NCBI GenBank assembly: GCA_977018835.1
Contig: OZ361259.1
Coordinates: forward strand, 4,340,001 to 4,404,000
Direction of reading: 5' to 3'
Source: Minutocellus sp. GHC0000111
Taxonomy: Eukaryota
Length of the DNA: 64,000 nucleotides
This document shows, piece by piece, positions 1,103-48,076 of this stretch (its first letter is position 1; each line of letters begins with the position of its first letter). The notes below the pieces were generated by a model. It saw nothing but the letters and a program-made list of their open reading frames with translations. It was not told where the DNA came from and ran no database searches. Made by a program: the position numbers and the translations under genes.

Positions 1103-2540
1103 ATGGCCGAACCAGATCGACCGGAACTGGATCACGTGTTGTTCGGAGTGGCAAGAGACCTCATCGTCCGAGGAGACTCTCTCCTGACCTACCTTCCACG
1201 AGGCTGGGACGACAGACTCAGACGTCAGATTCGGCCCGGGCGCAGAAGTTTCTTCACAGCCAGGGCGTCGTCCGAGAGACTGACCACAGACGCACTGGAT
1301 TGGTGGAGAAGTTTTGCCGAGGGCCGAATCGACGTTACCGAGCACCTCACCGATCTCGTCGAGCGCGCCACAGGCTACCTCTCCCATCGAGAGCCACGGG
1401 GTACCAGCCATCCCCAGCAGCAGCCGTTTCACACCTTACTCCAGTAGCGCACGGTCTGGTCGCCGAGTACCTCGAGCAACAAGCCTTCTTGGTGTCACCG
1501 GACTGGCCCACGCACCTCGTCAACATCTGGCTGACAGCCACGCGCCTTACCGAGCCTGAGATCCGCCGGGCACACGAGACGGCAACTGAGTTGGACCTGA
1601 GCAGTGCACTGTACCGACTACCACGGGCAGACGGAGGCGTCGTGGTTCAACAGTATCGGGGGCGAAGGTTCCGGAGGCATCGGTAGCAGCAGCGCGGCAA
1701 CACCATTGCATCTGGCCCCAGCTCTGCCGGCTCTCGCAGTGCATCCTCCACTACCAGGCCGACCGAAAAGAAAGACGGCGCATCGCGGCCAGAGAGGGCA
1801 GACCTCTAGAGCCGACACCGCACGCTTGCATAGGTTCACGGGGGAGCGAGCTTCCACCAACGCTGCCGCTCACTTATTTCGAGTGGGAGGTAAGGCCACT
1901 CTTCTACCCACGTGACGCACACGACCGAACCGAGCGGGCTGGCGTCAGTGTGGCATTGGAGCGAGGAGATCTCATCGGCCCTTTCGCCCTGATCACCCAG
2001 TTCCCGCTGGATTCGCCGTGCCCGTTCCAGAGACGGCAGCACCTACGACCGGACCAACTCACTGAAGCTATTATCGACTGGGACAGTGGATTCGAGAGCC
2101 TCACCAGCGCTCGACTCCGACACACTCGGCCTGACAGCAATCCTCTTGGACACCGAGTGGAGGTCAACCCGCACGAATGCTGGGGAAGGCTGGCAGACCT
2201 AACGGCGTCCCCCTCACACCGCTGGGTAGGCACCTACCATCGAGTCTATCCGAGGTGGCTAGACGACACAGCCGATCCAAATCGCTGGGAGGGTGCCCAC
2301 TACCGCGTCTGGCCAAGAGCATCAATTCACCGGCGCCCCGACGATCTCGAGGCACCTGTCCGCCTGCGAGACATCACCGCCGATATTTTGGCATCATCAG
2401 AGCCACCGCGTCAGGCATTCAACATCCTTCTATCCGCCTTTGGAGAGCCCGACATCGCCGACCGCATCCTCACCCTCACGGCCGATCTGAACCACATCCA
2501 GCGCCGAGAGGACCGACGCCGAAGGCGACAGGCAAGGTGA
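1103..2540 (+). pseudogene. Extra ORF upstream of gag inside the YR retrotransposon, unknown function, frameshifted
   Basis: ATG at 1103 (MAEPDRPELDH...). Coding-like segments continue through ORFs 1052..1447, 961..1686 and 1950..2540 in shifting frames. It lies between A1 and gag. Confidence 0.5.
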
Positions 2541-2560
2541 TCGAGCATTGATTGATCACC

Positions 2561-4495: not shown

Positions 4496-5198
4496 GTCGC
4501 ACGTCAAGAGGCCTCTTAAGGCATCGGAGAGAGGACCCGTCGAGCAGTGCGTCGAGAAATGCGATCGGAAGCACGAGGAGGCGGAGGAATGACGGATCGG
4601 GTGGGCACGGAGGCGTGGCCCACCCTCGGAGGATGCTGGAGAAACATCTCGGCCAGCCGGCCGAGCTCGTCCCTCCAAGCGCCGTCGAGTGCAGCCAGAT
4701 GCGTCGGCGTCAATCCGCCCCGGTGGCTCCAGCCGCCCAAGGTCATCCGGCACCCCAAAATCCGGCGTGTGCGGTCGCAACGACATCAGCAACCAATCCA
4801 GGCTCTCCGGTGCCCCTAACACCGGAGCAGAAGGCCGAGGCGTTAGCAGTGACCTTTGGTCGGGTCCTGGCCCCCCCCTAACACCAGCGGTGATGCCTGC
4901 GCCGACAACAGCATCTCAGGCTCTGGCTCCAGCACCACTAACGCTGGCGGTGCGGAAGCCACCGACAACCTCTTCGACCGGCTAGGCCAGCGAGAGAAGG
5001 ATCTCCTAGGTAAGCAGCCCCAACCCGAAGCACAGTCTCCCCCTGGTTCCCCTGCGCACAGCAAGGAAGTAGAACCGATGCGCCAAAATGGTAAGTGAGA
5101 CCAACAGGTGAAGAAACACCCACAACAAACGGGGCAGCCCAGCGCCCACAATGGGCCCACCACGGTCGGACAGACCCGCATGCTCGTGAACGTGCAGC

Positions 5199-7913
5199 AT
5201 GTGCATGTCTCACCTTTTTCTCGCCTTGTGCAATTCCACGTGGGAACTAGAGCCCATCTTCGATGTTTCCACCTCGGTGCAGCACGTCCGACGAGCAGTC
5301 GAGTTCCCGTCGGCCACACCGAAGCCCACGGAGTTCAGATTTGAGCTCTTGACGGAGGCCGCCGCTCACAATTGGTCGGTCCTCAAGAAATACGATCGTT
5401 CTCTGAGCAGGGCACTCGAGGCGCAGGGCGGGTCGCCACTCCAACCGGGATCGGAGTTCAGAGACCTGAGTCTTCTGGAGCCGATTCTTGGCCGGCACCC
5501 GCTGTGGCCCCGCTTCCGCTCCATTCTCGACAGTGGATCCGACTGGGCCCTCGATCCGGTGAGCGACGAAAGCAGACTGGACAGCGTGATAAAGAACATC
5601 GGCCGAGGCAACCACAAATCTGCCAGGGATAGGCCGGAGGTGCTCAAGGACCAAGTTCTCGACGACGTGACCCGCGGTTTCGCCCTCCCTCTGCCAGCAA
5701 AGGTCGCGCCCCTCATTCCTGGAGCGGAGGTGGCTCCGATGGGTTTGGCAGCCCGGAGGCACTCAAGGACCAAGTTCTCGACGATGTGACCCGCGGTTTC
5801 GCCCTCCCTCTGCCAGCAAAGGTCGCGCCCCTCATTCCTGGAGCGGAGGTGGCTCCGATGGGTTTGGCAGCACAGAACACGATCAGCGAGGCTGGCGAGA
5901 TCATGCCCAAGGACCGCCTGACTCACGACCAATCCTTCGAGATCGGTGCCGCACGGTCCGTCAACAACAGAGTGCGCATGGAGGACCACCAGCCAGTGGT
6001 GTTCGGCCATGCCCTCCGGCGAGTGATCCACTGCATCGCAGACGCCCGTCACAAGCATCCCCGTGCTCCCATCCTCCTGCAGAAGGTCGATTTCAAGGCT
6101 GCGTGTCGCCGGGCCCACTTGGCTCCCAGCAAGGCCGTCAAAACGATCACCACCCTGGATGGCATTGCCCTCATGTCCCTCCGGCTGACTTTCGGCGGCC
6201 GCCCTTGCCCGAGCGAATGGTGCAACACATCCGAATCGGCGGCCGACCTGGCCAGGGCCCTCCTGCAATGCTCGGACTGGGACCCGTCAGAGCTCCATGG
6301 CCCCCAGCAGAAGCACTTGGGTCGCCCCAAGGTGGAGGGCGACGACGTGCCGTTCGCGCCGGCCCTGGACATGATCGCAACCCTTCCCGACAACAAGGAT
6401 GGCATCGTCGAGCCGCACATCGACGACCTCATCGCCGCAGCCCCTGACCTGGGCGACAACAAGGATCGGACATCCGCTGCCACCCTCCTCGCCATCCACG
6501 CGCTTGCTTGGCCGACCGGCATCCGATTGCGAGCCACTGCCCAGAGATGACCTTGCCTCCATCAAGAAGCTGCTCGCCGAGGGGACGCCTTCCGAAGCAC
6601 TGTGTCTCTTGGGGTGGGATGCTGACACCCGGCGGCTCCTACTGAGGCTCCCTTGGAGCAAGTGCCTGGCCTGGCGCGATGACATGCTTCGGCTCCTCAG
6701 AGCCCGCGGCGCCACCAGATCAGAGCTGGACACCTTGGTCGGAAGGCTAAACCACGTCGGACACATCATTCCAGCCGCACGACACTTCCTCAGCCGCCTT
6801 CGGGATCGGCTCTGGAAGGCCCGCCGCCACGGCCGCCAACGGTTCGACTCTGAGGATGCAGAAGACCTCAACCTGTGGCTCCGCTTCCTCCGAAGGGCCG
6901 CCGATGGCATGAGCATGAACCTCCTCACGCACCGTTGCCCCACCCACGAGCACATAAGTGACGCCTGCGAGCACGGCATCGGCGGATGGTCCTCATCCGG
7001 CAGAGCGTGGAGATTTGCCCTCCCCGAGGAGCCATGGGGCCGGTTCACCCTCAACTACCTGGAATTCCTCGCCGCCGTCATCGGCCCATGGATCGACCAC
7101 ATCGAGGGCAACCTACCAACCCTCTCCTGCGCACTGTCGGGGACCGACAGCACCACGGCCGAGGGATGGCTCAGGAAGTCGAACTTCGTGTCTCACGGCG
7201 AGAGGGATGCCGACGTAGCGGTCAAGCTGGCCACGGCGCGGAAACTAGCCGACATGCTCATCGAGACCAATGCCATGCTGTGCTCACAGTGGTTCCAGGG
7301 GAAGCGCAATCCGGAGGCCGACTCTCTTTCTCGTGATGCCGATCTCTCTGATGCTGACCTCACGAAATTGCTTCTATCATCTCCCGAATGTCAGCTTCCC
7401 TCAAATTTCAGGATTGCACCACCACCCAACGAGATTACTTCCTGGATTGTCTCGCAGGCGCGGACGCTGCCCGTCAGGAAGCAGTTGTTACAACGGCCAC
7501 TGCCGAGAAGCACGCTCTCGCGTGGAGCCGCTGGACTGAGTTCCTGCAGCTCATCGGGACCGGGGACGACGTCTTCCTCGACAAGGTGTCACCCCGAGAC
7601 CGAACAGTCATTCTCGGCGCCTTTGCCCACGCCGTCCGACAGGCCAGCTTTTCGGGGCCGAAGTTTTCGCGACTGGCTGCGTCGACAGTCCGAGACACCG
7701 TCTCACATGTGTGCTCGTCCTTCCGGCACAACCAGCGCAGGGACCCAGGGAAAGACGGCATCGGCCAGCCTTCATTCCTTCTACAGCGGCAGTTCCGAGG
7801 ACACAGCCAGTCCGACCCGGCCGAGCGGCCGGAGAAGGCGATCACCTGCCGGCTCCTCCGAGAGATCGCCTCCGTCAGGGAAACGGAAGAGGACCATGCA
7901 GTCGGGCAACTAG
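5199..7913 (+). pseudogene. Reverse transcriptase + RNase H (DIRS-type), frameshifted and point-mutated
   Basis: RT motifs RLTHDQS, KVDFKAA[C]RR, LRLTFGGRPCP, [H]IDD (6416-6427, expected YxDD) and LLGW. RNase H motifs SDACEHGIGG, NYLEFLAA, DSTTAEGW and N-x-ADSLSR. Split over ORFs 5199..5789, 5786..6550 and 6399..7913. Confidence 0.92.
5634..5871 (+). repeat. 119-bp tandem duplication inside the RT ORF (frameshifting)
   Basis: Copy 1 is 5634-5752 and copy 2 is 5753-5871. They differ at ggagg-TG-ctc vs ggagg-CA-ctc and at gaCgtg vs gaTgtg. Confidence 0.97.
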
Positions 7914-8676
7914 CCGTCGGCGCCTTCTTCTTCGCGATGAGGTCTCTTGCGAACACTCCAGAGTCAGCGGTGAGCGCAGGACCAAGCTGCTCCGCCTCCG
8001 CAACATCCAGTTCTACCGCGGCCGACGGCGCATGTGTCACAACGACCGGTCCCTCCTCTCAGCAGACTCTGTCTCCGTCACCTTTGAGTTCCAGAAGAAC
8101 GACGAGCGTGACGTCACGATTACGCAACACTGCACCCACGACGCCACCCTCTGCCCAGTTCGAGCTTGGGCTGCCCTTGTGAAACGAGTCCAAGGGCACC
8201 CTAGTACCAACAGCGATGCGCCGGTAAATGCCTTCGTGGTCAACGGCGTATTAAAATACATTCCTGCCACCCGAATAGTTGACAAGATCCGAGCGTCGGC
8301 CACAGTGATTGGAGAGGACGTCCTGGGCTGCCATCCCTCTGAATTCGGATCACACACTCCATTCGCAGCGGAGCAGCAATGATGGCAATGTATCTAAATG
8401 ATGTTCCCACGTACACAATCATGCTGGTAGGGCGGTGGTCCAGTGACGCCTTCCTCAAGTACATCCGTCGCCAGGTCCAAGAATTTACATCCGGAGTCTC
8501 TCCACACGCATGATCCAACGAGGTTCCTTTTCTTCAACGTGCCCCACGCACACTCGACGAGCCATCGCGAAGACCCAAGGACCCCAAATTGCCGCCAATC
8601 CTTCGCCGGCATCAACAGCATTGGCCGAAATGCCGGCTTCGGTACTCCAATGCCCCCCTTCGCCCTGTTCACCTAA
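7388..8676 (+). pseudogene. Tyrosine recombinase of the retrotransposon (frameshifted)
   Basis: Motifs AFFFAMRS-CE[H]S, FEFQKND, LCPVRAW, HSIRSGAA (8355-), GRWSSDAFLKYIR with the catalytic Tyr at 8460-8462. It overlaps the RNase H ORF, as is usual in DIRS-order elements. Confidence 0.92.
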
Positions 8677-8870: not shown

Positions 8871-9104
8871 CGTTGTGGGTGCCGCACGGTGGGGATGAGC
8901 TGGCGACGGTGGTTAGCAGCAGGCACTAAAACTGCATTCCTGTAGTGCCCAGTTTTTCTGCTGACCACCACCTTCGCCTCCTCTCGTCTCAACTGACCAA
9001 GCCACAACCATCTGCGATTGCTGCCGTTGCAATTGCTAAGTCAGCTTACAGTACCGGCTCCCAGAGCCTGTCTCTCTCTCTCTCTCAGTAGTTAGTTAGT
9101 TTTA
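8871..9104 (+). repeat. Direct repeat A2 (234 bp)
   Basis: Copy of 691-924 with two mismatches. Confidence 0.97.
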
Positions 9105-30757: not shown

Positions 30758-32275
30758 GATGATTGATGATGACGATGCAATGTTCGTTGTTGTTGTTGTT
30801 GTTCAAATGATAAGGCTATGGCGTCGTTTGTTTTTGTGTTGTTATGGTTGATGATGATATGGTACAGATTGCATGGAATGATTGTGATATTTTGCTAGCA
30901 GAAATGAATATGTAGGGAAGTCAAGCGCCGATCAATCGATAAGGATGGATTGGGCAGCGCCTTTTGGCTCGACGCAGGCTTCCGATGTAGGTAGTTGACA
31001 GGAAATTCGAGGAAGGGGTCGGTCCGACTGAGATAGAAAGACCCTTGACTCGATGAGAAACAAACAATTTTTGTGGATATGTGCAGGGTTGGTTCTATCG
31101 GGCGGTGAGTGTGCGGGGTTGCGTTAGCGAAGACTCGGGAAGAAGTCTACCTACAACAACCGCTCCGATGATGAATGTATTGACCGCCAATAATAATAAT
31201 GATGAATGTGAAAGGTGTGTGTGACTGGAGCACCCCGAGTGACTGGACTGACGGGGAGGGGTGCGCAGGATTTTGGGTTTGCGTTGGGATTTCGTTTCCC
31301 CTTCGACTGATCAAGAATACCGGCGGATGAACGGACGAATCGACAAAAGCTCACACAGCGCAGCGAACAATGAAGGCACGGAGTCAGGCGGTAGGGGGGT
31401 CTCCAGCGCAGGAACCTCTTCGCCTGAGGGATTGAGTCTCTTGCCGTACCTTCAAGATTGACCTTGCGCCTTGCCTTGACGCCTCTTTTTCTGCGCTGGA
31501 CGACGACAAGGCCTTTTTGCTTTCCGCGTGTCAAGCGCACGATTTCGAAATGACGATTAAGGTGTCAGAAAGAAACTATGAGTCACCGCGCGGAAATTCT
31601 GTCGAAGCCGCGAGAAGATGGTGTCGGTCGAGAGAGGGAGAAACGAGTGAGAATCAACGGCGCGACGGGAACGCCAAGATGGCAAGAGGGATCGCAGATG
31701 CGTGAGATATGGTTGAATCAATGGCATATCGTGCCAGCGGTACCGAAAGTTCAGCGAAAATGGCACATCATGGCCTCGCAAATGGCACAACAAAAGTGCC
31801 GTCGTCTATCCAAGAAGGAAGAACAAAAATGACTCCTGCCTGCGGCGCGGGCCAATATCTTGGGCAAGCCAAGAATAAAAGCGATGCCACCAGAGCTATT
31901 CCATGGAGCAGATCCATGAGACACAATGCACAATCGCTCGTACGAAATCTCCAACCATGACGCAACGTTCGCTCGCATGGATGCCCGTTACATTCCCACT
32001 TTTGTTGCCTGCGCGCCAACGGAACTTTCATCCAAGATCGACTCGAAGATATCGTTGCAATTTTCACGGCGTTCTCGTCCATTCCCACCACATTCACGAC
32101 CTCCACATCGTTGCGAACACACATGCAATAAACGGCATGGGGCCAATGGCAATGGTCAAACAATTGCACGGAATTCTCACCTGATCGATCTTCCATTCCA
32201 ACTCCGCAAAAGTGCGGGGCGGCACAAACGAGCATGCCAACACGCGCGAGGGTACGTGTGCTGTATGACAAGAAG

Positions 32276-32776
32276 ATGGCCAATACCACCACCGAAGCGG
32301 CAGGACATCATGGCGCGAATTTGGCCTCATCGGCCTCGGACGATCCATTTCTTTCTCGAGCCGATCTCCTTTTGGCTGATGCCACCGAAGCCCTCAAGAC
32401 CAACCAAGCCATGATGGCGAACCTCGCCAAAAAGAGCAACGAGAAGGATGATGCCATTGCCAAACTTCGCCAAGAAATAGCTTCACTCAAGGCCGAGAAC
32501 CGCGTTCTGCGTGAGGGACGCAACCACACTGGTGGCAGTGGAGGCTACCGCGGCGGTGGCCAGCAGAACGGCGCCGGCCACTTCCCAGGCCAAGGTCCTA
32601 ACCTCAACCGCCAGGAGAAGCGGGAACTGCAGTCGATCCTCCCCAGAGGCCATTGTTGCCACACGTGCGGCTATTCGTCCAACCACCCCAGCTTTGAATG
32701 CACTTGCAAAGGGCCCAACCACGTTGACAACGCCACCAAGTACAATCCTTGCGGTGGTAGCTCGCGTCGTAACTGA
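32276..32776 (+). pseudogene. Copia gag C-terminal fragment
   Basis: Coiled coil followed by H[C]CHTCGY..NH.S.EC..K...H...AT..N..GGS, the CoDi-type Gag end. Confidence 0.8.
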
Positions 32777-32889
32777 GCGGGAGGGACGGTGGATGTTAAT
32801 CAGTGTAAAATAGAGGATAGCATGTCTAAATCCACCTCCTCCCCGCCTTCGTTAGCTTTTCTTACGTCAAAAAGCAAACCTCCAACTCA

Positions 32890-35800
32890 AGAGCCAATCG
32901 TCCTCGCAGCAGATGCTGGAACGACGGGACATTTTGTCCAGAAGCCCCAATGACTGTCGTGCGATGGCCCTGTTTTCAACGTCCAACAGACAGCAATTCC
33001 TATCAGCGTCACCCTTCCGGATAGTAGCACAATGACGAACACCCACGAGGCCACGCTTCGCCTCCCTGGGGTTTCCCCATCGGCTAGCAAGGCCTATATT
33101 TTCAACAACATGGCATCATCGCTCCTGTCGATTGGGCAGCTGTGTGACGATGGATGTGTTGCCACTTTCGATAAGGATTCGGTAGTCATCGCCAAGGACA
33201 ACGCCGTCATTTTGCAAGGTAAACGAGACCCCTCAACGAAATTGTGGATGGTAGATCTTAATTGCTCGCCCACCATGTCGCCGCTCCCCGGCCCCAACGT
33301 CATCCAATGTGCTGCCAACGCCGCAATTGCCCAGGAGACGGTTCCGGAACGTGTAGCCTTTTTACATTGGTGCGCTGGCAGTCCTCAGCTATCTACCTGG
33401 TGCAAAGCAATCGATGCGGGATTTTATAGATCTTGGCCAGGCCTCACATCAAAGCTTGTACGCAAGCACATGCCACAGTCGATACCGATGATTAAAGGTC
33501 ACATAGACCAGCAGCGCAAGAACATCAGGTCGACCAAGCCCAAACGGTCGATGGCTACGCCAAAATCTCTCCCTGGGGTGGACGAAACCGAGCAGGATCT
33601 CCACCCGGCACAACACCAACAGCGCACCAACTATGTCTTTGCTGATTGTCATGACATAACGGGCCAGATCTTCTCAGATCAGCCCGGCCGTTTCTTGGTA
33701 TCGTCTATTTCTGGCCACCAGCACACAATGGTCGTCTATGACTATGACTCCAACAGCATCTTGGCCGAACCAATGAAAAGCCGATCGGGAACGGAAATGC
33801 GCCGAGCGTACCAAACTATTTTCGAATACCTCTCCAAGCGAGGATTTCGCCCAAAATTGCAACGATTGGATAATGAAGTGAGTCGAGAGCTGAAGGGGTT
33901 CATGGAAGAAAAGGATGTAGATTTTCAATTGACCCCAACGCACTCCCACCGCCGAAATGCGGCCGAACGAGCCATTCGAACCTTTAAGAATCATTTCATT
34001 GCGATTCTCTGTGGTGCCGATCCCGACTTTCCCCTCATCTTGTGGGATAAATTGCTGGAGCAGGCGGTAATGACCCTCAATTTCCTGAGAGCATCCGAAG
34101 TCAACACTCGACTATCAGCGTACGAGCAACTCAATGGCGGCTTTGATTTCAATCGCACGCCTCTCGGCCCCCTCGGATGCAAGGTCATCTTTCACGAGGT
34201 GCCCTCGGCACGCGGCTCTTGGTCCCCGCATGGCGTTGATGGGTACTATGTCGGTCCAGCCATGGAACACTACCGGTGTTACAAGGTTTGGATTGAGGAA
34301 ACTCGGGCGGAACGCACTGGTAACACACTCGTCTGGCTCCCCAAAATGATTCCGGTACCCAAAACGTCGTCGGCCGATGCAGCAATAGTCGCAGCTCATG
34401 AACTCCTGCACGCTCTACAGAATCCACATCCAGCGGCACCCCTTGCTCCCCTTCGAGACGAGCATCGTCAAGCTTTAGAAAAGCTCTCCGAGATATTCAA
34501 CAGCGTGACCCCAGCAGAATCTGCCACCTCCGCCTCTGATGAGACGATGCAGACAACCGCAGCTCCGAGGGTGCTGGAGAACGATGACGACTCCCAACGA
34601 TTCCGCCTCGGTACCATCGTCGCCAAAGTGTTTGGAGATCGCAATTACAAGGGTAGAGTCGTTGCATTTGACAAGAAGTATAAGCACTACAAAATCAAAT
34701 ACGAGGACGACGACGTAGAAGAGATGAACGAGACTGAAGTAGGCCGTCACCTTGTCTCCAACCCCAACGCTCCGTTACCTCAGCCCCAGCAACCTCCGAG
34801 GGTGGCAAAATCCTCCACATATGATGCAGCCACCACTAAAAGCCGTCGATCACGTCGATCCAACGCGCCACCTCGCTCGTCAGGTTCTTCCAACTACTAC
34901 AATCCTTTGGCTGCAGTAGACGAGCCCAACGGCGACGATGATGACAATCATGACGACGATGCAACCGTCGTAACATCCAATCAAAGTTCCAATGCCCCCA
35001 CCTCCCGTCGGCAACGTAAACGCAAGTCTCCAACGATCGATACCACTCCAACATTACCAGCTCCAGCAAAATCGACAAGCAAGTCCAAAAACCATCGACC
35101 GCCAAACCATCTCGACGACGATCATACCGTCAGCGAGGGTACATTCCACATCGGAACCCTCCCCCACGGCCATCATCTCGTCGTAGTGCCCACCACGTGG
35201 CCAACATGGCAGCTTTCTCGCCTTTACCAAACCTCCAACACTTTGCTAACGCCGTCGTCCATCCCGATGCTGGTGCAATGCTTGAACACCGCGACCTCCT
35301 CAAAACGAACATGAGGGACCAATTCATTCAAGCAAACATCGATGAAATTGGACGGCTAACGGACGGCCGAGTTGGAAACAGTGCTAGCATTCCCTCCAAC
35401 ACAATGGCTTTCGTCCACTGGTCCGAACTGCCTCGGGGGGGGAAAGCCACATGCCTCCGCATTGTCGCCGACTGTCGCTCCCATAAACCAAATCCCAATC
35501 GAGTTCGATGGACTGCAGGAGGCGACAAAATTCATTACCCTGGCACAGTCTCGACCCCGACCGCTGAAATGTTGACTGCAAAGTTACTTTTCAACAGCGT
35601 CATCTCTACAGACAACCAACGCTCGTTTCATGGGAATTGATATCAGTGACTTCTATCTCAATAGCACCATGCCAGAGCCAGAATGGATGTGGGCGCCAGT
35701 AGCTCTCATCCCCGACGAAGTCATGGAAGCCTACGACCTCCACGACAAAGTAAAGAATGGTCGAGCATTGGGTCAGAATCGATGGCGGAATGTATGGATT

Positions 35801-36977
35801 ACCCCAGGCAGGGCGCCTAGCCTACGATCAACTTGTCAAGCATCTCAAACCCCATGGCTATTTCCCTTGCAAGCGCACTGCCGGCCTTTGGAGGCACAAA
35901 ACCCGCCCAATTACCTTTTGCCTAACCGTTGACGATTTTGGAGTAAAGTATGTCGGGGGAAAGAGCATGCAGACCATCTCATTCAGGCCCTCAACTCCAA
36001 GTATAAGATCACTACCGATTGGGAAGGCCGACTTTATTGTGGTGTTCAACTCGAGTGGAACTACGAGGCCAAATGGGTGGATCTATCTATGCCTAACTAC
36101 GTCAAGGAGATGCGCCACAAGTTCCAACACGACCGCCCCTCACAGCCCGAGCATGCGCCATATCGATGGAATCGTCCGACGTATGGCCCGGGACCCCAGC
36201 TGCCAGAACCGGAAGACGACTCACCACCACTCGACGCCAAAGGCATCAACGAAATTCAACAGGTGGTGGGCAGCTCCTTGCACTGTGGTCGAGCAATTGA
36301 TTCAACAATTTTACCGGCGCTCAATAGCATCTCAGCGGAACAATCAAAAGCTACCGAGCGCACTCGACAAGATGCCAAGAAGCTTCTAGATTACCTTGCA
36401 ACCCATCCCGACGCAGTCATTCGATACGTCAAGTCAGACATGATCCTACATGTGCACATGGCGACGCCTCCTACTTATCAGCCCCGAAATCAAGAAGCAA
36501 GCTCGGAGAGGGTGCACTTCTACCTAAGCTCCCGACCTAAGCACCCGCACCGCCAGCCTGACTCAAGTGATCCCATGCCACCAATGAATGGAGCCATCCT
36601 CGTCAATGCCAATATCATCAAGCATGTAATGTCCTCTCAGCCGCTGAAGCCGAATTGGGAGGATTATTTTTCAACATGAAAGATGCAGTACCAATCCGGG
36701 CAGCACTAGAAGAAATGGGTCACCCGCAGCCCCCTACTGCTATCGTCGTTGACAACTCTACAGCATCTGGAATCGCCAATAAAACCGTCAAGCAAAGACG
36801 ATCTAAGGCTATGGACATGAGATTCTGCTGGGTCCAAGATCGCACATAGAGCAACGACAATTCCAGGTGTGCTGGCGGAAAGGAGCGCAAAATTTGGCCG
36901 ATTATTTTACAAAGCACCATCCCGCCCGCTACCATGTCGACATGCGACCAGTCTACTTACATGTAGATTCCAATTAG
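32890..36977 (+). pseudogene. Copia pol (PR-IN-Tudor-like-RT-RH), multiple frameshifts
   Basis: PR: ADAGTTGHF. IN: SDQPGRF, QRLDNE, HRRNAAERAIRTFKNHFI. RT: GMYGLPQAG, VDDFGVKY. RH: VDNSTA, SKAMDMRF, NLADYFTKHH. Confidence 0.92.
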
Positions 36978-37025
36978 GACTCTACATGTAGATTCAATGG
37001 CACTAGTCATTGATCTGCGAGGGTG

Positions 37026-37210
37026 TGTTGACACCGTGGGATACGTACGTACGTATACAAACGTACGGTACGTACGGTGATCAGACCACTGACTCAGTGC
37101 CCTCTCCTGACCGTTGATCCATGGGCCAACGACATCTCCGATGGCCCATTTTTCATCTACGTAGGTCTACTAGCTATATCTATCTAGCTTAGCTTTAGGA
37201 CCTCTTAGCA
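37026..37210 (+). repeat. Putative 3' LTR (~185 bp, TG...CA)
   Basis: Starts TGTTG directly after the PPT and ends TTAGCA, where peptidase coding sequence resumes. There is no second copy to confirm the end. Confidence 0.65.
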
Positions 37211-38489
37211 CCAGACGGAGCATGGGTTCCATCATCGACCAATTTCACGTCCTTGGCCGACCCTGCCGCAGTCGGCAGTGTGGCTTGACCGCACTGACGA
37301 CGCTGATGCATGAGGTAAGACGATTGTTTCCAAGTGCCAGACGTCTACATTGCTTTTGTTCATTTATAATACTACATGTAGTATGTTATTATGTACTCAC
37401 CCTTTATCACTTATCACTCACTGCTCTCATTTCGCCAACATTCAGCAGCCCAGCCCTCTGTTCAGCCAAGAGCGTGCCCCTACTAGTGTCGCACACGCTG
37501 AGAATCAATCAATGTTCTTGGACTCCCTCGTTGGAGATGCCGCGTGGAGAGCTAAATATGCCAAAAATCTGGATGGCAAAAGCATTCCCTTTGACATTAT
37601 CGAAGAGGAGATCAAGTCGACGCATCCATTTGCCGTTTTCGGCCTTCGGGCCATGCTATCAGTCAGCTATTTTGAAAAGGTATCATTTTTGTTCTCTCTC
37701 TTATTTGATATATTGTCGTCTCGTTTTTAAAATGCGCTTCCATTGACTGATCGATATCTCATGCCAACCGCCTACCAATAAATTTAGAGGCACTGTACGA
37801 ACTACCTGAGTCGGAAGTGACTGCCGAGAAAATCCAATCTTTAGCCGATGAGATTGAAAAGAAGATTCAAGGTGGTCTGTCTCCCCGTCCTCTTTCGAGC
37901 GTCCCGCATCTAGTCTCCGACGAGGCGTCGTGTTATTACCAAGGCTACACCCTCGCCGAGATGAGCGTCCATCAAACTCGCGAGCACTTCAAGGTGAGAG
38001 ACAGCGAGGTGGCTTCTTTATATTCATCTAGGGCAACATCTTTACATGCCCCATGTTGTCTCACCACCATCTTCAATTTTATTTTCCACCATCATTTCCT
38101 AATCTAATTAGAACAAATATGGTTACATCGTTGATAATCCTAATGTCGGTCCTGACATCACCTCTGCCTATTGGGTCCACGGCAACTCTCGTCAGTTTCT
38201 GGACCTCGTGAAGGATCTCACCGGTAAGGATCTATCGGGTGACGCATGGGTTGATGCCCTGAAGAAGAGCACGGCCGATAAGATCGCGCGAGAGAAGAAG
38301 GAGTATGACGAAATGATCGTCAAGATGAAGAGCGAGAAGGAAGATTCGTCGCTGGACTTGAAGATGGAGGTTCGATTCGTTGATGGCGATGAACTCATTG
38401 CTGCTTCTGATGGGGGGTTGCTCGAGGCATGCTCGAAATTTGAGGAGTTTGTGGCCAAGAGGGTTGCTGCCGCCGCTGCGGCGAACTAG
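37211..38489 (+). pseudogene. M3-family oligopeptidase, 3' portion only, disrupted by the Copia element
   Basis: WVPSSTNFTSLADP, TLMHE (rest of HExxH lost at the first intron), HFANI.QPSPLFSQERAPTSVA[H]AENQSMFLDS and YYQGYTLAEM. Three GT-starting introns. The N-terminal half is absent from the window. Confidence 0.82.
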
Positions 38490-38924
38490 AGCTACGTAGG
38501 TACGTATGTGCGGAGTTTTTGAATGATACATTGATTGGATACTGCGAGGGATGAATTGGATGCTAACGAAATGAAATAAAGAAGACGATTAAAAATAGTC
38601 AAATAAGTTACGACGTAATTTGACAGGCGGTAGAATACTGAACAGCTATTATTGCATACTTTGTATGTGTATTGCCGATATCTGCATTGCCAAGACATGC
38701 TTGAAAACATTTCGTTTGTGATAGATTATACTCCCAACCATTTTTTGTAATACGAAGCTGTCTCACCTACTACGTAGCGTGTAATGTTGTCAGCTGAAAC
38801 TAAGCTGTTCACAGCAAAAACTACCGGCCTTGCCACAAAAAACTGGTGCTATTGTGCTGCCCTCCCAACAAATGCATGCAAACTCGCTATTCAATTCCTT
38901 CTTCTTCGGTCTGTGTTTACCAAA

Positions 38925-39428
38925 TTATTTCTCTCCAAATTCAGCCCAGCATTCCGTCTCCTTCGGTCCGCCACCGTTCATAACATTGGTAAAGCCGTTG
39001 GCCATCAGGTAGTCCTTGGCCTTTTGGCCACGTCCTCCGCCGCCGCAGTGCGTGATGATGGGCGTATCCTTGTCCACATCGGGCAGGGGCATGCTCTCGG
39101 TATTGCGATCGTACACCAGGGATTGCGCCTGAGGACGGAAGCCCTCGGAGGGGAGGGCAGCGACGGCCAGGCTCTTCTGATCACCGGGTTCGACGGACTC
39201 GTCCGGATTGCGCACATCGGCCACCAGCAGCTTGGAACCGGCCGCCTCGACGAAGGCCTTGAGCTCCTCGGGGGAGGCCACTCCTGCCTTGCGTTCGAAC
39301 AGAGCTGTTGTGTAGGTGCTGGTCATTGAGCGGCTGGTGGTGGGCATCGCCACGGGGCTAAAGGCCGACGATGCAGCCAGGAGCGCGGCAAGCGAGACAG
39401 TGGTGAGGCGTCTTTGTTGGGATGGCAT
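38925..39428 (-). CDS. Single-domain rhodanese/sulfurtransferase with bipartite plastid signal
   Basis: Signal ending ASSA-FSP, DVRNPDE, active loop HCGGGGR, and NVMNGG. Confidence 0.85.
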   Translation of the reverse strand: MPSQQRRLTTVSLAALLAASSAFSPVAMPTTSRSMTSTYTTALFERKAGVASPEELKAFVEAAGSKLLVADVRNPDESVEPGDQKSLAVAALPSEGFRPQAQSLVYDRNTESMPLPDVDKDTPIITHCGGGGRGQKAKDYLMANGFTNVMNGGGPKETECWAEFGEK

Positions 39429-40038
39429 GTTTATGTCGGCGGCGGTGGCGACTGAGCGAGCAATGAAGCGTCGGTGGTCGGCGTGGGTGGTGTGGTTGCA
39501 TGCATTTGTCGCAGACCGCTGACGAACGAGATCGAATGGAAGCTGTTTCGAGGAATCAGGAAGAATCTTCGTACGTACTTACGCTTTCGTACGGGAACTC
39601 AAGGGTCAATGGTAATTCCATTCAATTCGGTTCCACTTTCTGTCTCATTGCAACAGGCCAGCTGTCCGGCCAGCAGATTGCGACTGCAGTTTCTGTCCAT
39701 GTCATTCCACCTACTTCAACTTACACGTCATTTAGACGCTTGAGATAATTTTAATAAGAATATACTGACGTCATGCAATTATCCGAGCAGATGTTTTTTC
39801 TGACGGCCACTGCAACCTTTCCGCCCGGACTGCAACCTTTGCGGCTCTTTTCGACGCGCGCTGCACTCTCCAACAGGCCCACCCTTTTTTGAACGCAACT
39901 CCAACAACACTTCAATACGTCCATTATTAACTCGACCAAATCAATTGACCAAACAGCAAATAGCTTCGTGAGATATACCACATTCGCATCCCGAAACGAT
40001 AGAGAGATATTATTCACACGGTTCAATCAATCCTGCAA

Positions 40039-43000
40039 ATGGCAAGCAACAAGGTACCGCCCAACGTCGTCGAGACCGGCGACGGGGAGGGAGTCGTCGC
40101 CGTCGCCGTCGCCGGACAAGGTCCGGCCCCTCCTCATTCGGAACCGGCACGTGCTGCCCCTGCCCGCAACCCACCCTCGTCCTCTGTCACCATGAGCAGC
40201 CTCAGCGGCAGCGGCGACGACAGTGCTGGAAGTAGCAGCGGCAATAACACAGAAGGCAATTCGAACAAGAACAAAGGAGGCGGAGCCACCGTCGTGACGG
40301 ATCCGGCCTCATCCCAGCAGGAGCAGCAGACGCAACAGGCGCAGCAGGCACAGTACAAGCCGTCCCCGCCGCTCAAGAAGAGGCGCAGGCCGAAGGATGA
40401 CGGCGCCGCGATGGCAAATGGCTTGTCCGGCGAGAAGCAGCGCAAGCAGAAGAAGCAGAGCGACCGGCAGGAGCAGGAGGCTGCGGCCGCCGGGCACAGC
40501 GACAAGCCCAAGAGGGCCAGCAGCGGCAGTGCGAGTGCTAGTACCACCGCCACCACAAGGATCCATGGTCAGTCGGCCGAGGCCATCGAGGCGGCCGCCA
40601 TCTGCGCCGGTCTTAGTCGCCTGGCTGCCAACTCCAACGCCAACTTTGGATCTGGAACGTCGCCGCAGGCGTCTGCGGCTGGCAGTCTGCAGAATGTGAC
40701 GACGCCCTCCTTCCAGGCGCAGCCATCCACAAGTACCAATACTACCCAGCTGTCTGCTTCTGCCTCTGTTCCTACTGCTGCTGTCCCGCCCGTTCAGCAG
40801 CAGCAGCCGCAGCAGCAGCCGCAGCAGATGGCAACCGCAGCCTCGATGCTCAACCTGCGGCAGCAGATGATGCAGTCGTCCAACCCCCTGTCGCTGCAGC
40901 AGCTGTCGATGACCCTCAAGGGCAACCCAACTCTGGCGGCGGCCGTCGCCCAGCAGCTGCTGGGCGGGGCAGGGGCTGGTACTACCGGTACCGGTGCTTC
41001 TGCAGGCACCGGCGCCGGCGTTGGTGTCTGCACCAACAGCAGCGCCAGCGTGAATACTGCTGCTACTCCAACGCCGCCCCAGCACCAGCACCAACAGCAG
41101 GCGGTACCTCCCGCTGTCGTTTTGAACGGCAACACCGCCAATACCAACAACATCAACAACGATCAGCAGAAGCAGCTCCTCGCCGCCATGACTGCTGCCG
41201 CCATGGCGAATGCATCTACGTCTTCTACCAACGCCGCACCAGCTGTACCGGGACCTGCTGGTCCAGGTAGGGCCCAGGCCACCGCCATGAGCATGATCCA
41301 GCAGGCTCTCCAGCAGGCAACTGCCTTGCCGTCTGGCATTTCCACTCCCGCCCCTGCTCCTGCTCCTACTCCTGGATCCGCCTCGACTCCTGCTGCCATC
41401 AACCCTCTCGCTGCTCTCTTTGGTGGACAGGTGCCACTGCCACCAGCACCTGGAGCGCCAGCAGGTGGTGGGAATAGCAGCGGTCCTACTACGGCTGCTC
41501 TGGCCGCGGCGCTGCAGAACCTACCGGGGTTGATGGCAGCACAGCAGCAGCAGCCACAACCGCAAGTGCCACGTCCAGGAGCTGCTGTATGGCCCAACCT
41601 CGGCGCCCAGCGCCCTCCAGGTCAGCAGCCCTTGTACCCCTTGGCTCCCAAGCCTGCCACCCTCGCCGGGCCAGTTCCAATTGCTCCTGCGCCACCGGCA
41701 GTATCAACGATGGCCCGGCCGATATCCGTCATCGCCCCACCGCCAACGGCCGAGGAGACTCGGGCCGCACAGCGCGCTCACGAGGTGGCTGCCCGTGTCC
41801 TCAAGAAGATGAATCGCAAGAAGCGTGGATCGTCGTCCACGTCGTCTGGCGATGCCAACAAGAAGAGCAAGAAGGACGAGGATGCTGCCGCCGTGCCTGC
41901 ACCGGCAGCCACCGAAGGGGAGGCTTCGAGCAACACTACTGCTACTACCAAGGCCTCTTCGTCCAAGAAGGCCGATGCGTCAACTACCAAAAGAGGCCGA
42001 GGCCGCCCCCGAGCCAACACCACGCAGACCGCCGCTACGGCTGCGACGTCGAATACAAAATCTGCCACCGCTGCGACTGCGGCGCCTACCAAGCAAGCTG
42101 TCGTCGCTGCCCCAGCTGCGTCCTCGGCCGTTGCCTCCTCGGCTTCGTCCGGTGGTGCCGGTTCAGGTCATCTTCACCACCACGTTCACATTGGCCATCT
42201 TCCTCATCCGCAGCCGCCGATATCGACCATCACCCGAGCTCAGGGAGAGTCTGCCGCCATGGCGACGCCGCTCCTGCTCCCTTACATGAGAAAGTGGAAG
42301 CTGGAAGAGCTTGGTAAGTTTTCTCTATTTGTATTGGAATATGTATGTCCTGCCCAAGCGTCGTATTGTGTGATTGAATATTTTTGTATTGTTTCTATTT
42401 CATCGCCTGTCGTCTAACATCGCATGTCTGTTTGCTCTCATATCTTCTTCTTCATTTACACAGAGGCCCATGTTAAGCTTCTTACTGATGCTGGCCAGCC
42501 AATCCCACAGTCACTCAATCTACTCCTTGCCGATGCTAGGAAGAAAGAAGAGAGGCGCATCAACAAGCGAGCCTCCAATCGCAGGTCTGCCAGCACTTCC
42601 AGAGCTCGTAAAAAGGCCCTCGTGGAGGAAATGACCAGGCTTAACGCAAAGCTTCGAAGGCAGGCTCTCATCCTCTCCCTCCTTCCCGATATGGTTCTTG
42701 CGATCGACGTCGATGGTGTTATCACCTTCTGCAGTGCTCAGGCGGAACGTATCCTCCAGCACAACAGCGAGGATCTCGTTGGTGCCAAGCTCTCTCAGCT
42801 TTTGGTCCCACCGTCTCGAGATGCCCTGTCGCGGCTCGTCGACGAGCTCGTTGCTACTCAGTCGAAGGCAGCAGCCGGTGCCGCTAATGCCGCTGGCGAC
42901 GGTGGAGACGGTGACGCCGATAACGCTAATGGCGACAATGCTCCCAACGAGGATGGTGCTGACGGTGGTCGCCAAGGACGCAGGGGACAGAAGAAGGTCC

Positions 43001-44808
43001 GTGGCGAGGATGGAGCTGTGGTCGTCTCTGAGCAATGAGAGCAGTCCTTCCCACTCTCCGTCGTGAATGTCAAAAATAGGTCGAAACAAGCTGCCGCCAA
43101 TAACGAGGACGTATCAGACTCGTCGGGGGGAGAAACCACCGCCGCTGCCGAGGCTGCCGAGAATGACAGCAACGGCAAGGACAAGGGTCGCAGCAACGAC
43201 AGCAAGGGCGACGGTACTACTTCATCCTTGACCAACAACTCCTCATTGAGCCGTTCCACCACCAACTCCTCCTTTGGTAACGATAGCAAGGAGGCTGCTG
43301 ACGAGGGGGGCGATGGGTCGAAGTCCGAACGAGAGTCTGTCAGTACTGATCGCGCTGTCAAGTCTGACCATAGGCACAACTCCAATTCTGGCCGCAAGGA
43401 ATCCAAGAAGGACAAGGAGGGTGCGAGTACCCCTCCCAGTGCCCAGGCTCAGCCGCAACAGCAGCAGCCACAACAGGCCCAGCAGCAGCCACCTCAGCAC
43501 CAGACTTCAAGTGGCGACGACTCCTCGTCATCATCCAACCGTCTGGCTCAGGCAAGCGAGGCCCTCAATCGCAATGTCCGATGGCACAATGAGAACATGA
43601 TGACTTCGGGCAAGGTCGGCGAAACGCAAGGCGTCGGCTTTACAGACGACGTTACGGGGGCTTCCGTTACTGCGAACAATGCTGGGGCAAGGCTTTCGTC
43701 TTTGCAGCACCTACCTTCTAAGATTGCTGATATCTCCAACAATACAAAGAAGGTCGAGGCCAAAAATGCCGAGGAAGTTTTGCCCGAAGCCGAAGAGGAT
43801 GGTGATCGTATCAAGATCAAGAAGGTCACAGGCAAGGCCAAAAAGTCAACCGTCGACCGAACTTCGTCAACCCTCACCTTTGACGAAAGCTTGGAGGATG
43901 CCCAGTCATCGTCATCGTCTGATTCTTTACTCTCCGGCATTGAAGACAAGCAGCGTCGTGGTAAGCGCGACATGTCGTCCGAGGACTCTGGCTACCGTGA
44001 GTCTGGCGAGAGCGTTCCTTCGAGAGAGGACTCCTCCACCGCCAGCGATGATGCCTCATCGGAAGATAAGGATGGATCGAGTAGGCCCAAGCCACTTGCC
44101 CCTACGTGCAACGTCTGTGTCATCAGGAAGGATCTCAGCACTGTTTGGTGCGAGGTCACGTCTTCCATTCGAACGCGCAACACCGAGGACGACGAGAGTG
44201 GCGAGGCCCTTTCTTCCCTAACTGGCTCTGGCAACAAGACCTCGAGCTCTGAGAGTGGTAGTGCAGATGAGCAGCAGCAGGACAACAAGGCCTCGTCCAC
44301 CCACGAGCTTCTCCTTTGCTTCCGACCCATCCGGGACGGAGAGGAAAACGTAGGAGAGGAGCTCCGTTTCGTGCCTCCTGAGAAAATGGAAATCGATGAA
44401 GACGAACAGGAGCAGGCCAGTGCTGACCGATCGTCCAACACTGCCACCGGCAGCGGCAGCACTGAGGCGGTATCGAGTCTCACGCAGAGTGCCGATCGAT
44501 CCAACACCACCAGCAACAACTCTGCCAGTACCGAGGACGCCACCAACACATCTGGGTCGTCAAATGACAAGAAGCCCAAGGCTACCACCAGAGGTCCTCC
44601 CAAGAAGCGTCCTCTCGAAGGCGCCAAGGTGTCCGCAAGTAGCTCTGCCGGTGCCAATTCCGCCGCAGCCACCAGCTCTGGCGACGGATCTTCCGAGGAA
44701 CCCGCGCAAAAGAAGAGGCGATCACTCAGTCTTTCCAATACCGAAGAGGCCGACGTCGCCGAGTCTCTTGTTCTCATGAATAAATCCCCACAGAAATCTC
44801 CGCAGTAG
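40039..44808 (+). pseudogene. bZIP-PAS transcription factor (diatom type) with a premature TGA
   Basis: Gln/Ala-rich N-terminus and intron 42314-42463 (GTAAGT...CAG). bZIP KRASNRRSASTSRARKK. PAS N-half LPDMVLAIDVDGVITFCS and PAS C-half CVIRKDLSTVWCEVTSS...LLLCFRPI. In-frame TGA at 43036-43038. Confidence 0.82.
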
Positions 44809-44959
44809 ATTTCTTCTTGCATATCATCTCGCGGATATTTACATTTTTGGAGATCATGCATTATGTATTTGAGAATCTAGCTAGATCTAATCAAAATCAT
44901 TCTATTTGATAGATAGACCAAGCATAGTTATGATATTTAGTTCTTGTCTTGTCGGTCAT

Positions 44960-46898
44960 CTACCTGCCGAATCCACCACCTCCACCGAAACCCTTCTTCT
45001 TCATCTTCTTTGCCGCCCTCCTTTGGGACCTGTTTCCAGCCATTGCTGGCATCGCTCCAGCATCAGCGGTGGCAGTTTCCGGACTTACGCCAGGTCCCAT
45101 TTGTTTGCATTCTGCTCATCATCGTGCGCATCTTTTGGAATTCTCCGATGAATTGGAATCCTTCCTCAAGCTGCCTACCAGCTCCCATGGTAATCCGTCG
45201 AAGCCGAGACGTCGCAGTCTTGTCCGTGATAAGAAGCTCAGGGTTGGCACGCTCCTTCTTGGTCATACTCTTGATGATGGATTCACTAACCTTCAGCCGC
45301 TTTTCAACCGCGCGCATCTGAGCGTTATCAAACTGTCCAACCATGCCAGGGAGCATCTTGGCAACGCCAGCGATGCTTCCCATCTTGCTTACGAGCTGAC
45401 TTTGTTTGATGAAGTCGTCAAAGTCAAAAGTTGCCTCCCTCATCTTCTTTTGCATCTTTTCAGCATCAGCATCAGAAACCTCCGACGAGGCCTTCTCCAC
45501 CAGACTGATAACGTCGCCCATGCCAAGGATACGCGATGCCATTCGATCGGGGTAGAACGGTTCGAGATCGGGCGTCTTCTCTCCAGTACCGACAAACTTG
45601 ATGGGCTTACCACTGACACCCCGAACACTCACGGCAGCGCCACCACGGGAATCGCCGTCCAACTTGGTCAAAATGGCGCCCGAAATGCCCACCGCTGAGT
45701 CAAACGACGCCGTCAACGATGCTGCCTCCTGACCCGTCATAGCATCGACGACCAAAAGTGTCTCGTCTGGGTTGACCTTGTTCTTGATGCGACGGAGCTC
45801 ATCCATCAAATCCTCATCAATGACCTGACGACCGGCAGTATCGACAAGGACTGTATCGTAGCCCTCAGCCTTGGCCTTTTCTACCGCGGCTGCGGCAATG
45901 TCCACCGGATCCGCATCGGCGCCCATAGAAAACACATCGACGCCAACACTCTCTCCCAATATCTGCAGCTGCGAAATGGCGGCTGGACGGTACACATCGG
46001 CAGCGGCCATCAGCACCTTGCGGTTCCGGGTAGGCATCCGGCTCGTGAGGAGCTGAGAAGCCTCGTCTCCCATAGCCTCGACGGCATCGTAGTCCACCTC
46101 GCGCTCCTTCAGATACAAGGCCAGTTTACCAGCCGCGGTCGTCTTACCCGCACCCTGCAATCCGGCAAGCAGTACGACCGCCGGCTCGCCCTCGGCCTTG
46201 GGGGTTGCCAACGTCGAGGCGGGAATGTTGCTAGAGGTACCGACCTGGCTGTTACCGACGGTGGAATCGCCACCCATAATGTCGAGCAGTTCGTCGTACA
46301 TGTACTTGATGAACTGCTGATCGGCCGTCACGCCCTTGAGGACCTCCTGGCCGATGGAACGCTTCTTCACACCCTCGATGAGAGTATCGGCGACGGCGAC
46401 GTTGACATCGGCGTCCAGAAGGGCCCGACGGACATCTCTGAGGGCACTCTTGACGCTCTGTTCGGTCATGCTATTTTTTGTGATCAGTTTGGATTGAAAA
46501 ATGATGTCGCATATAGGTCAGAAGACTGTAAAGATAACGAGCGAGAGAAGAAGACAAGGCATTGTAATTGCATAATGCTTCCCTGTCCTCATTTCTTTCG
46601 TTCTTTCATTATTATTGGACAATCGCGCCTTCAAGCACAAGACATGATTGGATCCTCGTCAACTCACCGCTGCTTCGGTCCTAGGCTAGATGCAACCTGC
46701 GAGATGGCCGACGATAGCTGATCGAACATCATGTTCAATCCAGTCGAGGACGAGGACGTCCGGCGTGCTGCTACCTGCACATTATTGTTAGTGCGAAAGG
46801 CCGTGAAGGAGGAGGTGGGGGCAAAGGCCTGTGCTGGTCGTCGTCGCAGCGACGACGGCAAGCGCCAGGGCAGAAAGGGCACGTCGATCCAGAATCAT
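44960..46898 (-). pseudogene. cpSRP54: Chloroplast signal recognition particle 54 (Ffh-type) with two frameshifts
   Basis: ALLDADVN, GLQGAGKTT, DVYRPAA, DTAGR, TKLDGDSRGG and PFYPDRMASRILGMGDV. AQA-FAP plastid motif. Intron 46471-46667. Frameshifts in the signal peptide (~46835) and near 45100; the true tail ...NRSQRRAAKK...GFG ends at 44960. Confidence 0.9.
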
Positions 46899-47182
46899 GG
46901 CGGACGCGCTCGTTGGGATGGATACTGCGTCAAGCAGGTGGGCGGGGGTATTATTGTACAGTCAATTTGGCGCAATCGAGACGCTGGAATTGCAAGGTCT
47001 TCAGGTCAGGTCGGTCGACCGGTCGACTGACGCATCCACTTTCAGTGCACTCCTCCATCAGCTCTACCAAGTTCAGGAGTGCGTAAAATTTTACTTTAGA
47101 GAGTGCTTCATTTCATTAGTCGAACGGGTCATGCGTCTTGCTGCAGCTGCCTCTCCACCGCTCGCAATTTGCTCTGTCCAAG

Positions 47183-48076
47183 ATGAGGCTCAAGCACCTC
47201 GAAAGCGCCCTCAGTTCCGTCCCAGTGAAGCGATTTCCGGACCCAAAAATTGAGCTGGAACAGTATGCCACGTCTCCTCACCTTACTGCAGCTGTGATTT
47301 TGACTGCTCTGGGCAATGGAGACATTGGCCCTGGGCGGACTGCGATGGACTTGGGATGCGGAACTGCAATGTTAACAATTGGCTGTGGCATAGTCGAAAC
47401 CGATCACATCACCGCCGTCGATTGCGATGCTGATGCCATGGAGGTGGCCCGGTCCAATGTGATGGAAATGTTGGGCGATGATGAGGATGGTGATAGCGAC
47501 GAGGATGGTGGCACATCATCTTGCTCGCCACCAGTGGAATTTGTCTTTGCAAAAGTTGTACACGAATCTAATCAGGAATTCCTAATGGAGGCCCTGGGCG
47601 GTGGACGAGGTGATCGTGGCCGCGGCCGTGGTAGGGGAGGCGATCGACGCAAAGGTGGACGCGGTGGCAGGGGTAGAGGAGGAGGAGGGAGAGGGAGGCC
47701 CGCACCACCACCAGCAACAGCGGCTGGCAGGTCCCACGGCGACAAAGGTGACCAATTAGATGGGTTGCCATTCCGAGATAACTGCGTCGACACAGTTCTT
47801 ACCAATCCTCCATTTGGGACCAAACAAAATGCTGGAATAGACATTACTTTTCTTCGAGCGGCTACTCGAATGGCTCGGCGAGCAGTGTACTCATTCAACA
47901 AGACATCGACAAGAGAATATTTGACCAAGAAGATCAAACAATGGGGTTACCGAGTGGAGGTTGTCGCACAGATGAGATACGACATACCCAAGATGTATCA
48001 TTTCCACACCCAGGACAGTGTCGATGTAGAAGTTGATTTGATACGAGTGATAATTGACGACGATGATGATAGATGA
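47183..48076 (+). CDS. METTL5: METTL5-type N6-adenine rRNA methyltransferase with RGG-rich insert
   Basis: PKIELEQYAT, DLGCGT, TNPPFGTK, VYSF.KTSTR, and YDIPKMYHFH...VDVEVDLIR. Confidence 0.88.
   Translation: MRLKHLESALSSVPVKRFPDPKIELEQYATSPHLTAAVILTALGNGDIGPGRTAMDLGCGTAMLTIGCGIVETDHITAVDCDADAMEVARSNVMEMLGDDEDGDSDEDGGTSSCSPPVEFVFAKVVHESNQEFLMEALGGGRGDRGRGRGRGGDRRKGGRGGRGRGGGGRGRPAPPPATAAGRSHGDKGDQLDGLPFRDNCVDTVLTNPPFGTKQNAGIDITFLRAATRMARRAVYSFNKTSTREYLTKKIKQWGYRVEVVAQMRYDIPKMYHFHTQDSVDVEVDLIRVIIDDDDDR

Follow-up and report, generated by a model that had tools for sequence, protein, structure and literature searches.

A strand-symmetric T:A>C:G signature at TpA in a Copia retrotransposon and a second retroelement of the diatom Minutocellus

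According to our analysis, a Ty1/Copia (CoDi-like) retrotransposon copy in a 64,000-nucleotide stretch of the genome of the diatom Minutocellus sp. GHC0000111 (assembly GCA_977018835.1, contig OZ361259.1, positions 4,340,001 to 4,404,000; hereafter the window, whose coordinates are used throughout) carries T:A>C:G transitions concentrated at the dinucleotide TpA. The process behind them is context-specific, acting at 5'-TA(C/T), strand-symmetric, non-processive, and restricted to repeats, and an unrelated tyrosine-recombinase-type (YR-type) retroelement of the same window carries the same signature. A repeat-restricted TpA mutator is very probably at work here. For the whole chain that we propose, in which a host DNA adenine deaminase would act repeatedly on integrated repeats, we estimate a probability of roughly 55%.

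Codon changes in the Copia copy

An initial annotation of the window had listed ten codon changes in this copy as traces of such a mutator, and the codons to which it gave positions were located there in the window DNA; WTAGG, cited with no position, has its GCA codon at 35515 (Table 1). Eight of the ten are valid losses. In gag, GYH and GHYC are ancestral, since the related locus L001 keeps both tyrosines, and position 32306 is a T in 2079 of a depth of 2266 in the DNA sequencing run X5. The tyrosines of EYR, KATY, ADYR, LYY, and MRFYW are present in the intact relative P0001, which is 84% identical to the window copy, and they are polymorphic across sister copies, both tyrosines of LYY included. 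P0001 also reads VYW and WTVGG, the motifs affected by the other two changes. However, the alanine of WTAGG is shared by all seven covering copies and the intact relative P0220, so that this change is family-fixed and was rejected as evidence for the mutator. VCW is ambiguous: P0001 has Tyr, each of the three covering copies has Cys, and the column is only 50% Tyr in distant relatives.

Counted against intact relatives, 17 of the 29 polarised amino-acid changes of the window copy (1202 columns) are TA>CA or TA>TG; they correspond to 17 of 171 amino-acid-visible TpA bases, against 2 changes at 976 other T/A bases (Fisher p=6e-13). At the DNA level, where the window and L001 are 76.8% identical over 2835 nt, 36 of the 104 TpA of L001 appear as CA or TG in the window, with 13 of 83 in the reverse direction, and TAY triplets (Y, C or T) number 128 in L001 and 91 in the window, compared with 80 and 75 for TAR (R, A or G). 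We therefore confirm the cited TpA signature in the Copia copy as real and well supported.

Rates and sequence context in sister copies

Rates were obtained from 16 sister copies, namely P0061 and 15 listed members of a 113-member protein cluster (40 read). The 15 cluster members are about 85 to 97% identical to the window over in-frame segments, and all 16 copies reside on contigs of 0.58 to 3.3 Mb; because none of them equals the window copy, they probably come from another strain or haplotype. They were compared as proteins, the DNA context being taken from the window sequence as a proxy. The count by amino acid covers 804 columns conserved in three outgroups, after removal of 20 family-fixed columns (28 in a separate count). 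Since cells are partly dependent, column counts are given beside cell counts.

Within these columns, tyrosine is changed in 138 of 340 cells (Cys 76, His 60, Asn 2), while Trp (0/123), Cys (0/93), Gln (0/239), and Gly (1/506) are almost invariant. Transitions of the T>C or A>G type occupy 148 of 1289 cells at TpA and 30 of 8239 elsewhere, a 32-fold difference. The base on the 3' side matters as well: Tyr>His is found in 35 of 102 cells when the next base is C and in 20 of 67 when it is T, against 0 of 53 for A and 4 of 162 for G, which gives 55/169 for TAY and 4/215 for TAR (by column, 18/19 and 4/27), and the cross-codon and NTA classes agree with this TAY preference. The 439 Tyr cells contain 67 His and 91 Cys but lack Arg, of which about 22 would be expected if hits were independent; a site altered on one side therefore stops being a target.

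His and Cys are both present in 21 of 47 Tyr columns, and the hits are therefore recurrent. That different copies hold His or Cys at one column also speaks against a signature produced by wrong base calls in long reads, or by misassembly, at modified TA sites, as do TpA variants in contigs of the Illumina-labelled runs X8 and X14 and of X1 and X5 (contigs from 4 of the 24 listed sequencing runs were aligned to the element), with four T>C changes inside 32804-32818 in X8 and a G in about half of the depth at 34821 in X5. We deem such an artefact scarcely credible, although seven small insertions within 1.8 kb of the window copy are missing from most of the sister contigs aligned, and the sister proteins derive from megabase contigs whose platform is unstated.

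The load differs between copies, from 12% to 80% of tyrosines lost (10/47 in the window copy), with significant heterogeneity (chi2 66, 16 df, p=4e-8) and no relation to background divergence (rho 0.05). A load that varies by copy in this way would also be expected from editing during retrotransposition, by an ADAR- or APOBEC-like activity hitting RNA or cDNA once per copy and off the chromosome, and both elements tested are retroelements. Editing by ADAR or APOBEC in reverse transcription leaves a one-strand bias and strand-coordinated runs. This pattern is not seen in the Copia family, where the strands are hit alike (sense T>C 66/644, sense A>G 82/645; 1 of 17 copies is skewed), 108 of the 222 pairs of adjacent hits are same-strand (shuffled mean 0.50), and no strand coordination of hits was found at the three distances tested. 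A duplication whose halves were hit on opposite strands and a pair of repeats that differ at TpA, both described below, likewise argue against editing of this kind, which we regard as improbable.

The signature in a second element and in host DNA

The annotation had also held that the mutator is not specific to one transposable element order, and our results bear this out, as the same T:A>C:G changes at TpA are found in the Copia and YR-type elements and host DNA is without excess. The two elements are indeed unrelated: they have no detectable protein similarity, and P0001 matches the window only in the Copia region. We take the second element to be of the YR type from its motifs, YIDD in the intact relative P0230 and HSIRSG...Y at 8343-8507; Pfam and PDB searches gave no match naming it. 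In the window copy, 6 of 6 mappable tyrosines are lost, and the YIDD motif of the reverse transcriptase (RT) reads HIDD at 6416. Over the seven Tyr columns of an intact relative, 34 sister proteins retain a single Tyr in 137 cells, the other 136 being His/Cys, while Tyr is still found in all 54 cells of eight intact relatives. The sister copies of both families occur on contigs with the same lengths (1288667, 1475054, 2909337, and 3275419) and thus most likely lie in one assembly.

The lighter load noted earlier for Copia is upheld (10/47 Tyr lost versus 6/6, p=3.5e-4). The observed/expected ratio of TpA is 0.63 for Copia, 0.47 to 0.60 for host open reading frames, and 0.16 for the YR-type RT region; the Copia ratio is close to that of the host, and composition alone therefore hides the Copia load. 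A heavier load also occurs within Copia. P0026, a distant Copia protein (about 42% identity) from a 23.5-kb contig, has an open 1385-aa frame with 0.4% Tyr, and 19 of its 24 deep tyrosines are His or Cys, with 3 of 24 kept. Given this protein and the 12 to 80% range of the Copia copies, the difference in load is therefore not a property of the element order. Among 173 distant proteins, 70 of 2917 cells are His/Cys, 17 of them from P0026. In 80 of 276 JGI loci, 18 of 1157 deep-Tyr cells are His/Cys; all but L001 (80%) are distant (40 to 58% in the best segment), and JGI assemblies probably collapse copies, so that low His/Cys counts there say little on absence.

As a control, we used 10 kb of single-copy host DNA (37211-47200), where transitions with C/G in the window and those with T/A are balanced, 18:17 against X1 and 18:18 against X5, whereas the element stretch gives 45:23 and 44:28. 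Among the rows listed (40 of 66 for the host; 40 of 120 for the element stretch, 31 of them inside the element), 4 of 28 host transitions lie at TpA, as do 14 of 24 in the element (p=0.001). In row 32828 the window alone lacks G, probably through a reverse change from TG to TA, which would bring the element count to 13 of 24. Ten host reading frames retain 1.4 to 4.0% Tyr. These data bear on the idea that a genome-wide TpA bias or GC-biased gene conversion becomes visible in transposons through relaxed selection. TpA is indeed low across the window (about 0.6 observed/expected), and all four TpA-linked host differences are CA or TG in the window. Against this idea stand the symmetric host spectrum and the small share of TpA in it, together with the sister copies, where C>T in all contexts reaches 33 of 9469 cells, that is 0.35%, and non-TpA T/A bases change at 0.36%, leaving no general pull towards GC. 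We consider a genome-wide bias very improbable.

Timing and candidate mechanism

The changes were likely made after insertion. The two differences between the 234-bp direct repeats both fall at TpA in the TAC context, an outcome with a chance of about 0.009, and the 119-bp tandem duplication, whose segment is single in the three sister proteins covering the motif, has been hit on opposite strands in its two halves (Table 1); it also contains a CpG-type difference and another that lies at the boundary. These three internal sites, together with the lack of strand runs, lend indirect support to action on integrated DNA.

We infer that the mutator is host-encoded, as the annotation had supposed. 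In the mechanism that we favour, a host enzyme would convert the A of TpA to inosine in chromosomal DNA, replication would read the inosine as G, yielding TG or CA with loss of the target, and repeated episodes would strip tyrosine codons, including catalytic ones (YIDD>HIDD), disabling the elements without creating stops. Silent chromatin, small RNA, or homology are candidates for what would aim the enzyme.

The same target and timing could be reached by other chemistry, namely a repeat-specific base modification (5-hydroxymethyluracil or 5-formyluracil, methylated adenine) or an error-prone polymerase in silent chromatin, producing T:A>C:G at RTA/TAY. Modified thymine does occur in dinoflagellate repeats, and, A>G on one strand being T>C on the other, this route matches all the sequence results equally. 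However, polymerase eta has a WA motif (W, A or T), and ApA/TpT sites are hardly raised (12/2451 versus 148/1289 at TpA); moreover, both neighbours matter, which would fit an enzyme pocket. The context of amphioxus ADAT2, which differs from TAY (PMC10354150), counts in favour of this route, which we hold to be unlikely.

Several points weigh against a deaminase acting on integrated repeats. By sequence, a lesion on A and one on the paired T are indistinguishable; amphioxus ADAT2, the only natural ADAT2 shown to deaminate A in DNA, prefers GAA and not TAY (PMC10354150), though a different family member could be responsible. The contexts of the sister copies come from the window as a proxy, and their cells are not fully independent; one copy of 17, P0203, is strand-skewed, with 20 Cys against 4 His (p=0.012, uncorrected). 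The host control covers 10 kb, with 40 of 66 rows and without an outgroup. The evidence on timing consists of three sites, and the 691-924 repeat is presumed to be part of the YR-type element. Finally, ten named diatom proteins (two labelled Cyclotella from gene ids) hold 3 His/Cys in 158 cells and thus no load, whereas P0026 is heavily loaded; the process accordingly varies from copy to copy or from species to species.

Relation to known systems

The closest known case is Bigelowiella natans, in which TpA hypermutation of integrated DNA of nucleocytoplasmic large DNA viruses and virophages was measured de novo, at about a 1000-fold rate, and an ADAT2-like adenine deaminase was proposed, the enzyme itself being unknown (10.64898/2026.01.13.699255, Mettrop et al.). 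In both systems, A becomes G when preceded by T and T becomes C when followed by A, on both strands; the changes are confined to foreign or mobile DNA, and the load is uneven between lines or copies (10.64898/2026.01.13.699255). The confinement to mobile DNA is seen here in the symmetric 10-kb host control. They differ in that Bigelowiella is a rhizarian, with a de novo rate determined on single-copy viral insertions and transposons implicated by composition only, whereas the window, from a diatom, offers two kinds of multi-copy retroelement with historical changes polarised per copy and a clear TAY context; the accessible main text of the Bigelowiella preprint mentions neither diatoms nor trinucleotide context (10.64898/2026.01.13.699255). 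The signature is thus in print so far for Bigelowiella viruses, and the window adds an unsaturated family with rates measurable against a host control.

Repeat-induced point mutation (RIP) of ascomycete fungi, which introduces C>T in repeats, resembles the process described here in its dinucleotide-specific transitions, which build up on both strands of repeats and inactivate transposons. RIP has a CpA context and is triggered by homology in the sexual cycle via an RID-type methyltransferase. It creates TpA from CpA/TpG, whereas the process in the window destroys TpA, without stops; C>T at CpA amounts to 3 of 2196 in the Copia sister copies, which sets the process apart from RIP.

ADAT2/3, TadA, ADAR, and APOBEC3 have the A>G outcome in common with the window. 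A 5' U/T preference of ADAR is cited in the Bigelowiella preprint (10.64898/2026.01.13.699255), amphioxus ADAT2/3 can deaminate A in DNA (PMC10354150), and the accessible text of PMC9399415 holds nothing on the context of TadA. The spontaneous spectrum of the diatom Phaeodactylum is GC>AT-biased (PMC6604790). TpA is not mentioned in the accessible text on the atypical spectrum of Prasinoderma (PMC11884799), and TpA, hypermutation, and deamination do not occur in that of a 2025 preprint on diatom transposable elements (10.1101/2025.10.24.684338). Our search of the freely accessible literature found no report of a TpA signature for diatom transposons.

The results would extend the mutator from viral insertions in a rhizarian to transposons of unrelated types in a stramenopile. 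There is hardly any documentation of natural enzymes that deaminate adenine in genomic DNA, and the TAY fingerprint provides a screen for one, while the unsaturated Copia family, with about 200 copies, can serve as a rate reporter. Transposon dating and annotation are distorted where the process acts, since divergence is inflated at TpA and open reading frames stay open though their proteins are dead. It is possible, if doubtful, that diatoms and chlorarachniophytes share an ancient genome defence of the stramenopile-alveolate-rhizarian (SAR) lineage, a mirror image of RIP, in which a natural DNA adenine deaminase would read 5'-TAY on resident transposons and viruses, disable them through the loss of tyrosines, and leak into host DNA in the flanks.

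Structure and copy number of the elements

Table 1 collects the features. The Copia copy is frameshifted and also 5'-truncated, because sister copies continue upstream of 32265 with letters that differ from the window, and a search for a pair of long terminal repeats (LTRs) found the single one at its 3' end. The depth of X5 is 12 to 29 in the flanks and about 2300 to 4000 in the Copia body, which corresponds to roughly 200 copies; with its tyrosines partly retained, the family is unsaturated for TpA loss. In X1 and X5 the flanking contigs continue into different sequence without Copia, therefore the insertion seems to be missing there and is apparently strain-polymorphic.

TABLE 1 Coordinates of the features of the window
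Feature	Position	Strand	Basis or remarks
Ty1/Copia (CoDi-like) copy, 5'-truncated, high-copy family	32265..37210	+	X5 depth; loose ends 32263-32266 and 37210
gag remnant with GYH>GHH (32306), GHYC>GHCC (32654)	32265..32776	+	L001 alignment; T at 32306 in the majority of copies
pol: protease, integrase, Tudor-like domain, RT, RNase H	32789..36975	+	tblastn with P0001; PF21743
Stop and seven 1-4 nt insertions in pol	32951 (stop); 35087-36846 (insertions)	+	Sister contigs
RT/RNase H changes: EHR 35287, KATC 35452, ADCR 35473, WTAGG 35515 (GCA codon), LHC 36281-36286, MRFCW 36826, VCW 36870	35287..36872	+	
3' LTR, TG...CA, about 185 bp, preceded by a short purine tract	37026..37210	+	Sequence; loose ends 37026, 37210
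YR-type retroelement, near saturation for T:A>C:G at TpA	2500..8640 (approximate)	+	
234-bp direct repeat	691..924, partner 8871-9104	+	Two differences (701, 909), both TpA in TAC context
119-bp tandem duplication	5631..5871	+	TG in one half, CA in the other at 5641-5642
Single-copy host control	37211..47200	.	Symmetric spectrum; TpA in 4 of the 28 transitions listed

The pol order protease-integrase-RT-RNase H is collinear with intact P0001; the protease, integrase, and RNase H motifs were read by eye against the consensus that we assume for Copia. In Pfam, a retroviral SH3 domain (weak match) and a Tudor domain precede RVT_2 (PF07727), whose match on P0001 (E 2.5e-5, 24.5 bits) lies under the curated cut-off of 31.6 and which is precomputed on many relatives. 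The PTM/DIR17-like Tudor domain (PF21743), at 34610-34750 between integrase and RT, is present in few of the relatives listed and is possibly a chromatin-reading module. The best named matches of the element are from Phaeodactylum, Fragilaria, and Fistulifera, with 45 to 51% identity. For a host protein of the window, the best Atlas cluster consists mostly of Bacillariophyta, a tentative lead whose recognition score lies under the threshold; it agrees with these matches in pointing to a diatom host. Its domain order is that of the CoDi Ty1/copia elements of diatoms, and its TG...CA LTR falls inside their reported range of 153 to 844 bp; unlike them, it has the Tudor-like domain after the integrase, and the copy is dead (PMC2806351, Maumus et al. 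2009). A search of viral contigs for relatives of the element gave 19 pattern matches, 0 of which were confirmed. The seven insertions of 1-4 nt within 1.8 kb are mostly short duplications or run extensions, with none in the preceding 2.8 kb (among 12 of 31 indel rows), and they are either a repair signature or an assembly error.

In the YR-type region (2000-9100), the middle of the element has lost the most TpA (ratio 0.10 at 6-7 kb), and the loss weakens toward the ends. The recombinase-like end at 8343-8507 retains tyrosines, and the 234-bp repeats retain 10 TpA each.

Of six transitions that lie no more than about 300 bp from the Copia copy, three (31997, 37276, and 37494) have CA in the window against TA in other strains; at greater distance this holds for 2 of 25 (p=0.04). 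The difference hints weakly at leakage of the mutator into the flanks, the direction of these changes being unpolarised. Downstream, a spliced host transcript (X8) over 37211-38581 has a further 490 nt of different sequence upstream of 37211; the insertion has therefore either taken the place of the 5' portion of a transcribed gene or moved it elsewhere. A second spliced gene, at 40174-44808, presumably has glutamine-rich and bZIP-PAS-like parts, with no Pfam match on the two frames scanned. At 39390-39423, the window and X1/X5 differ by 10 substitutions in 34 bp, within host DNA that is otherwise about 0.5% divergent.

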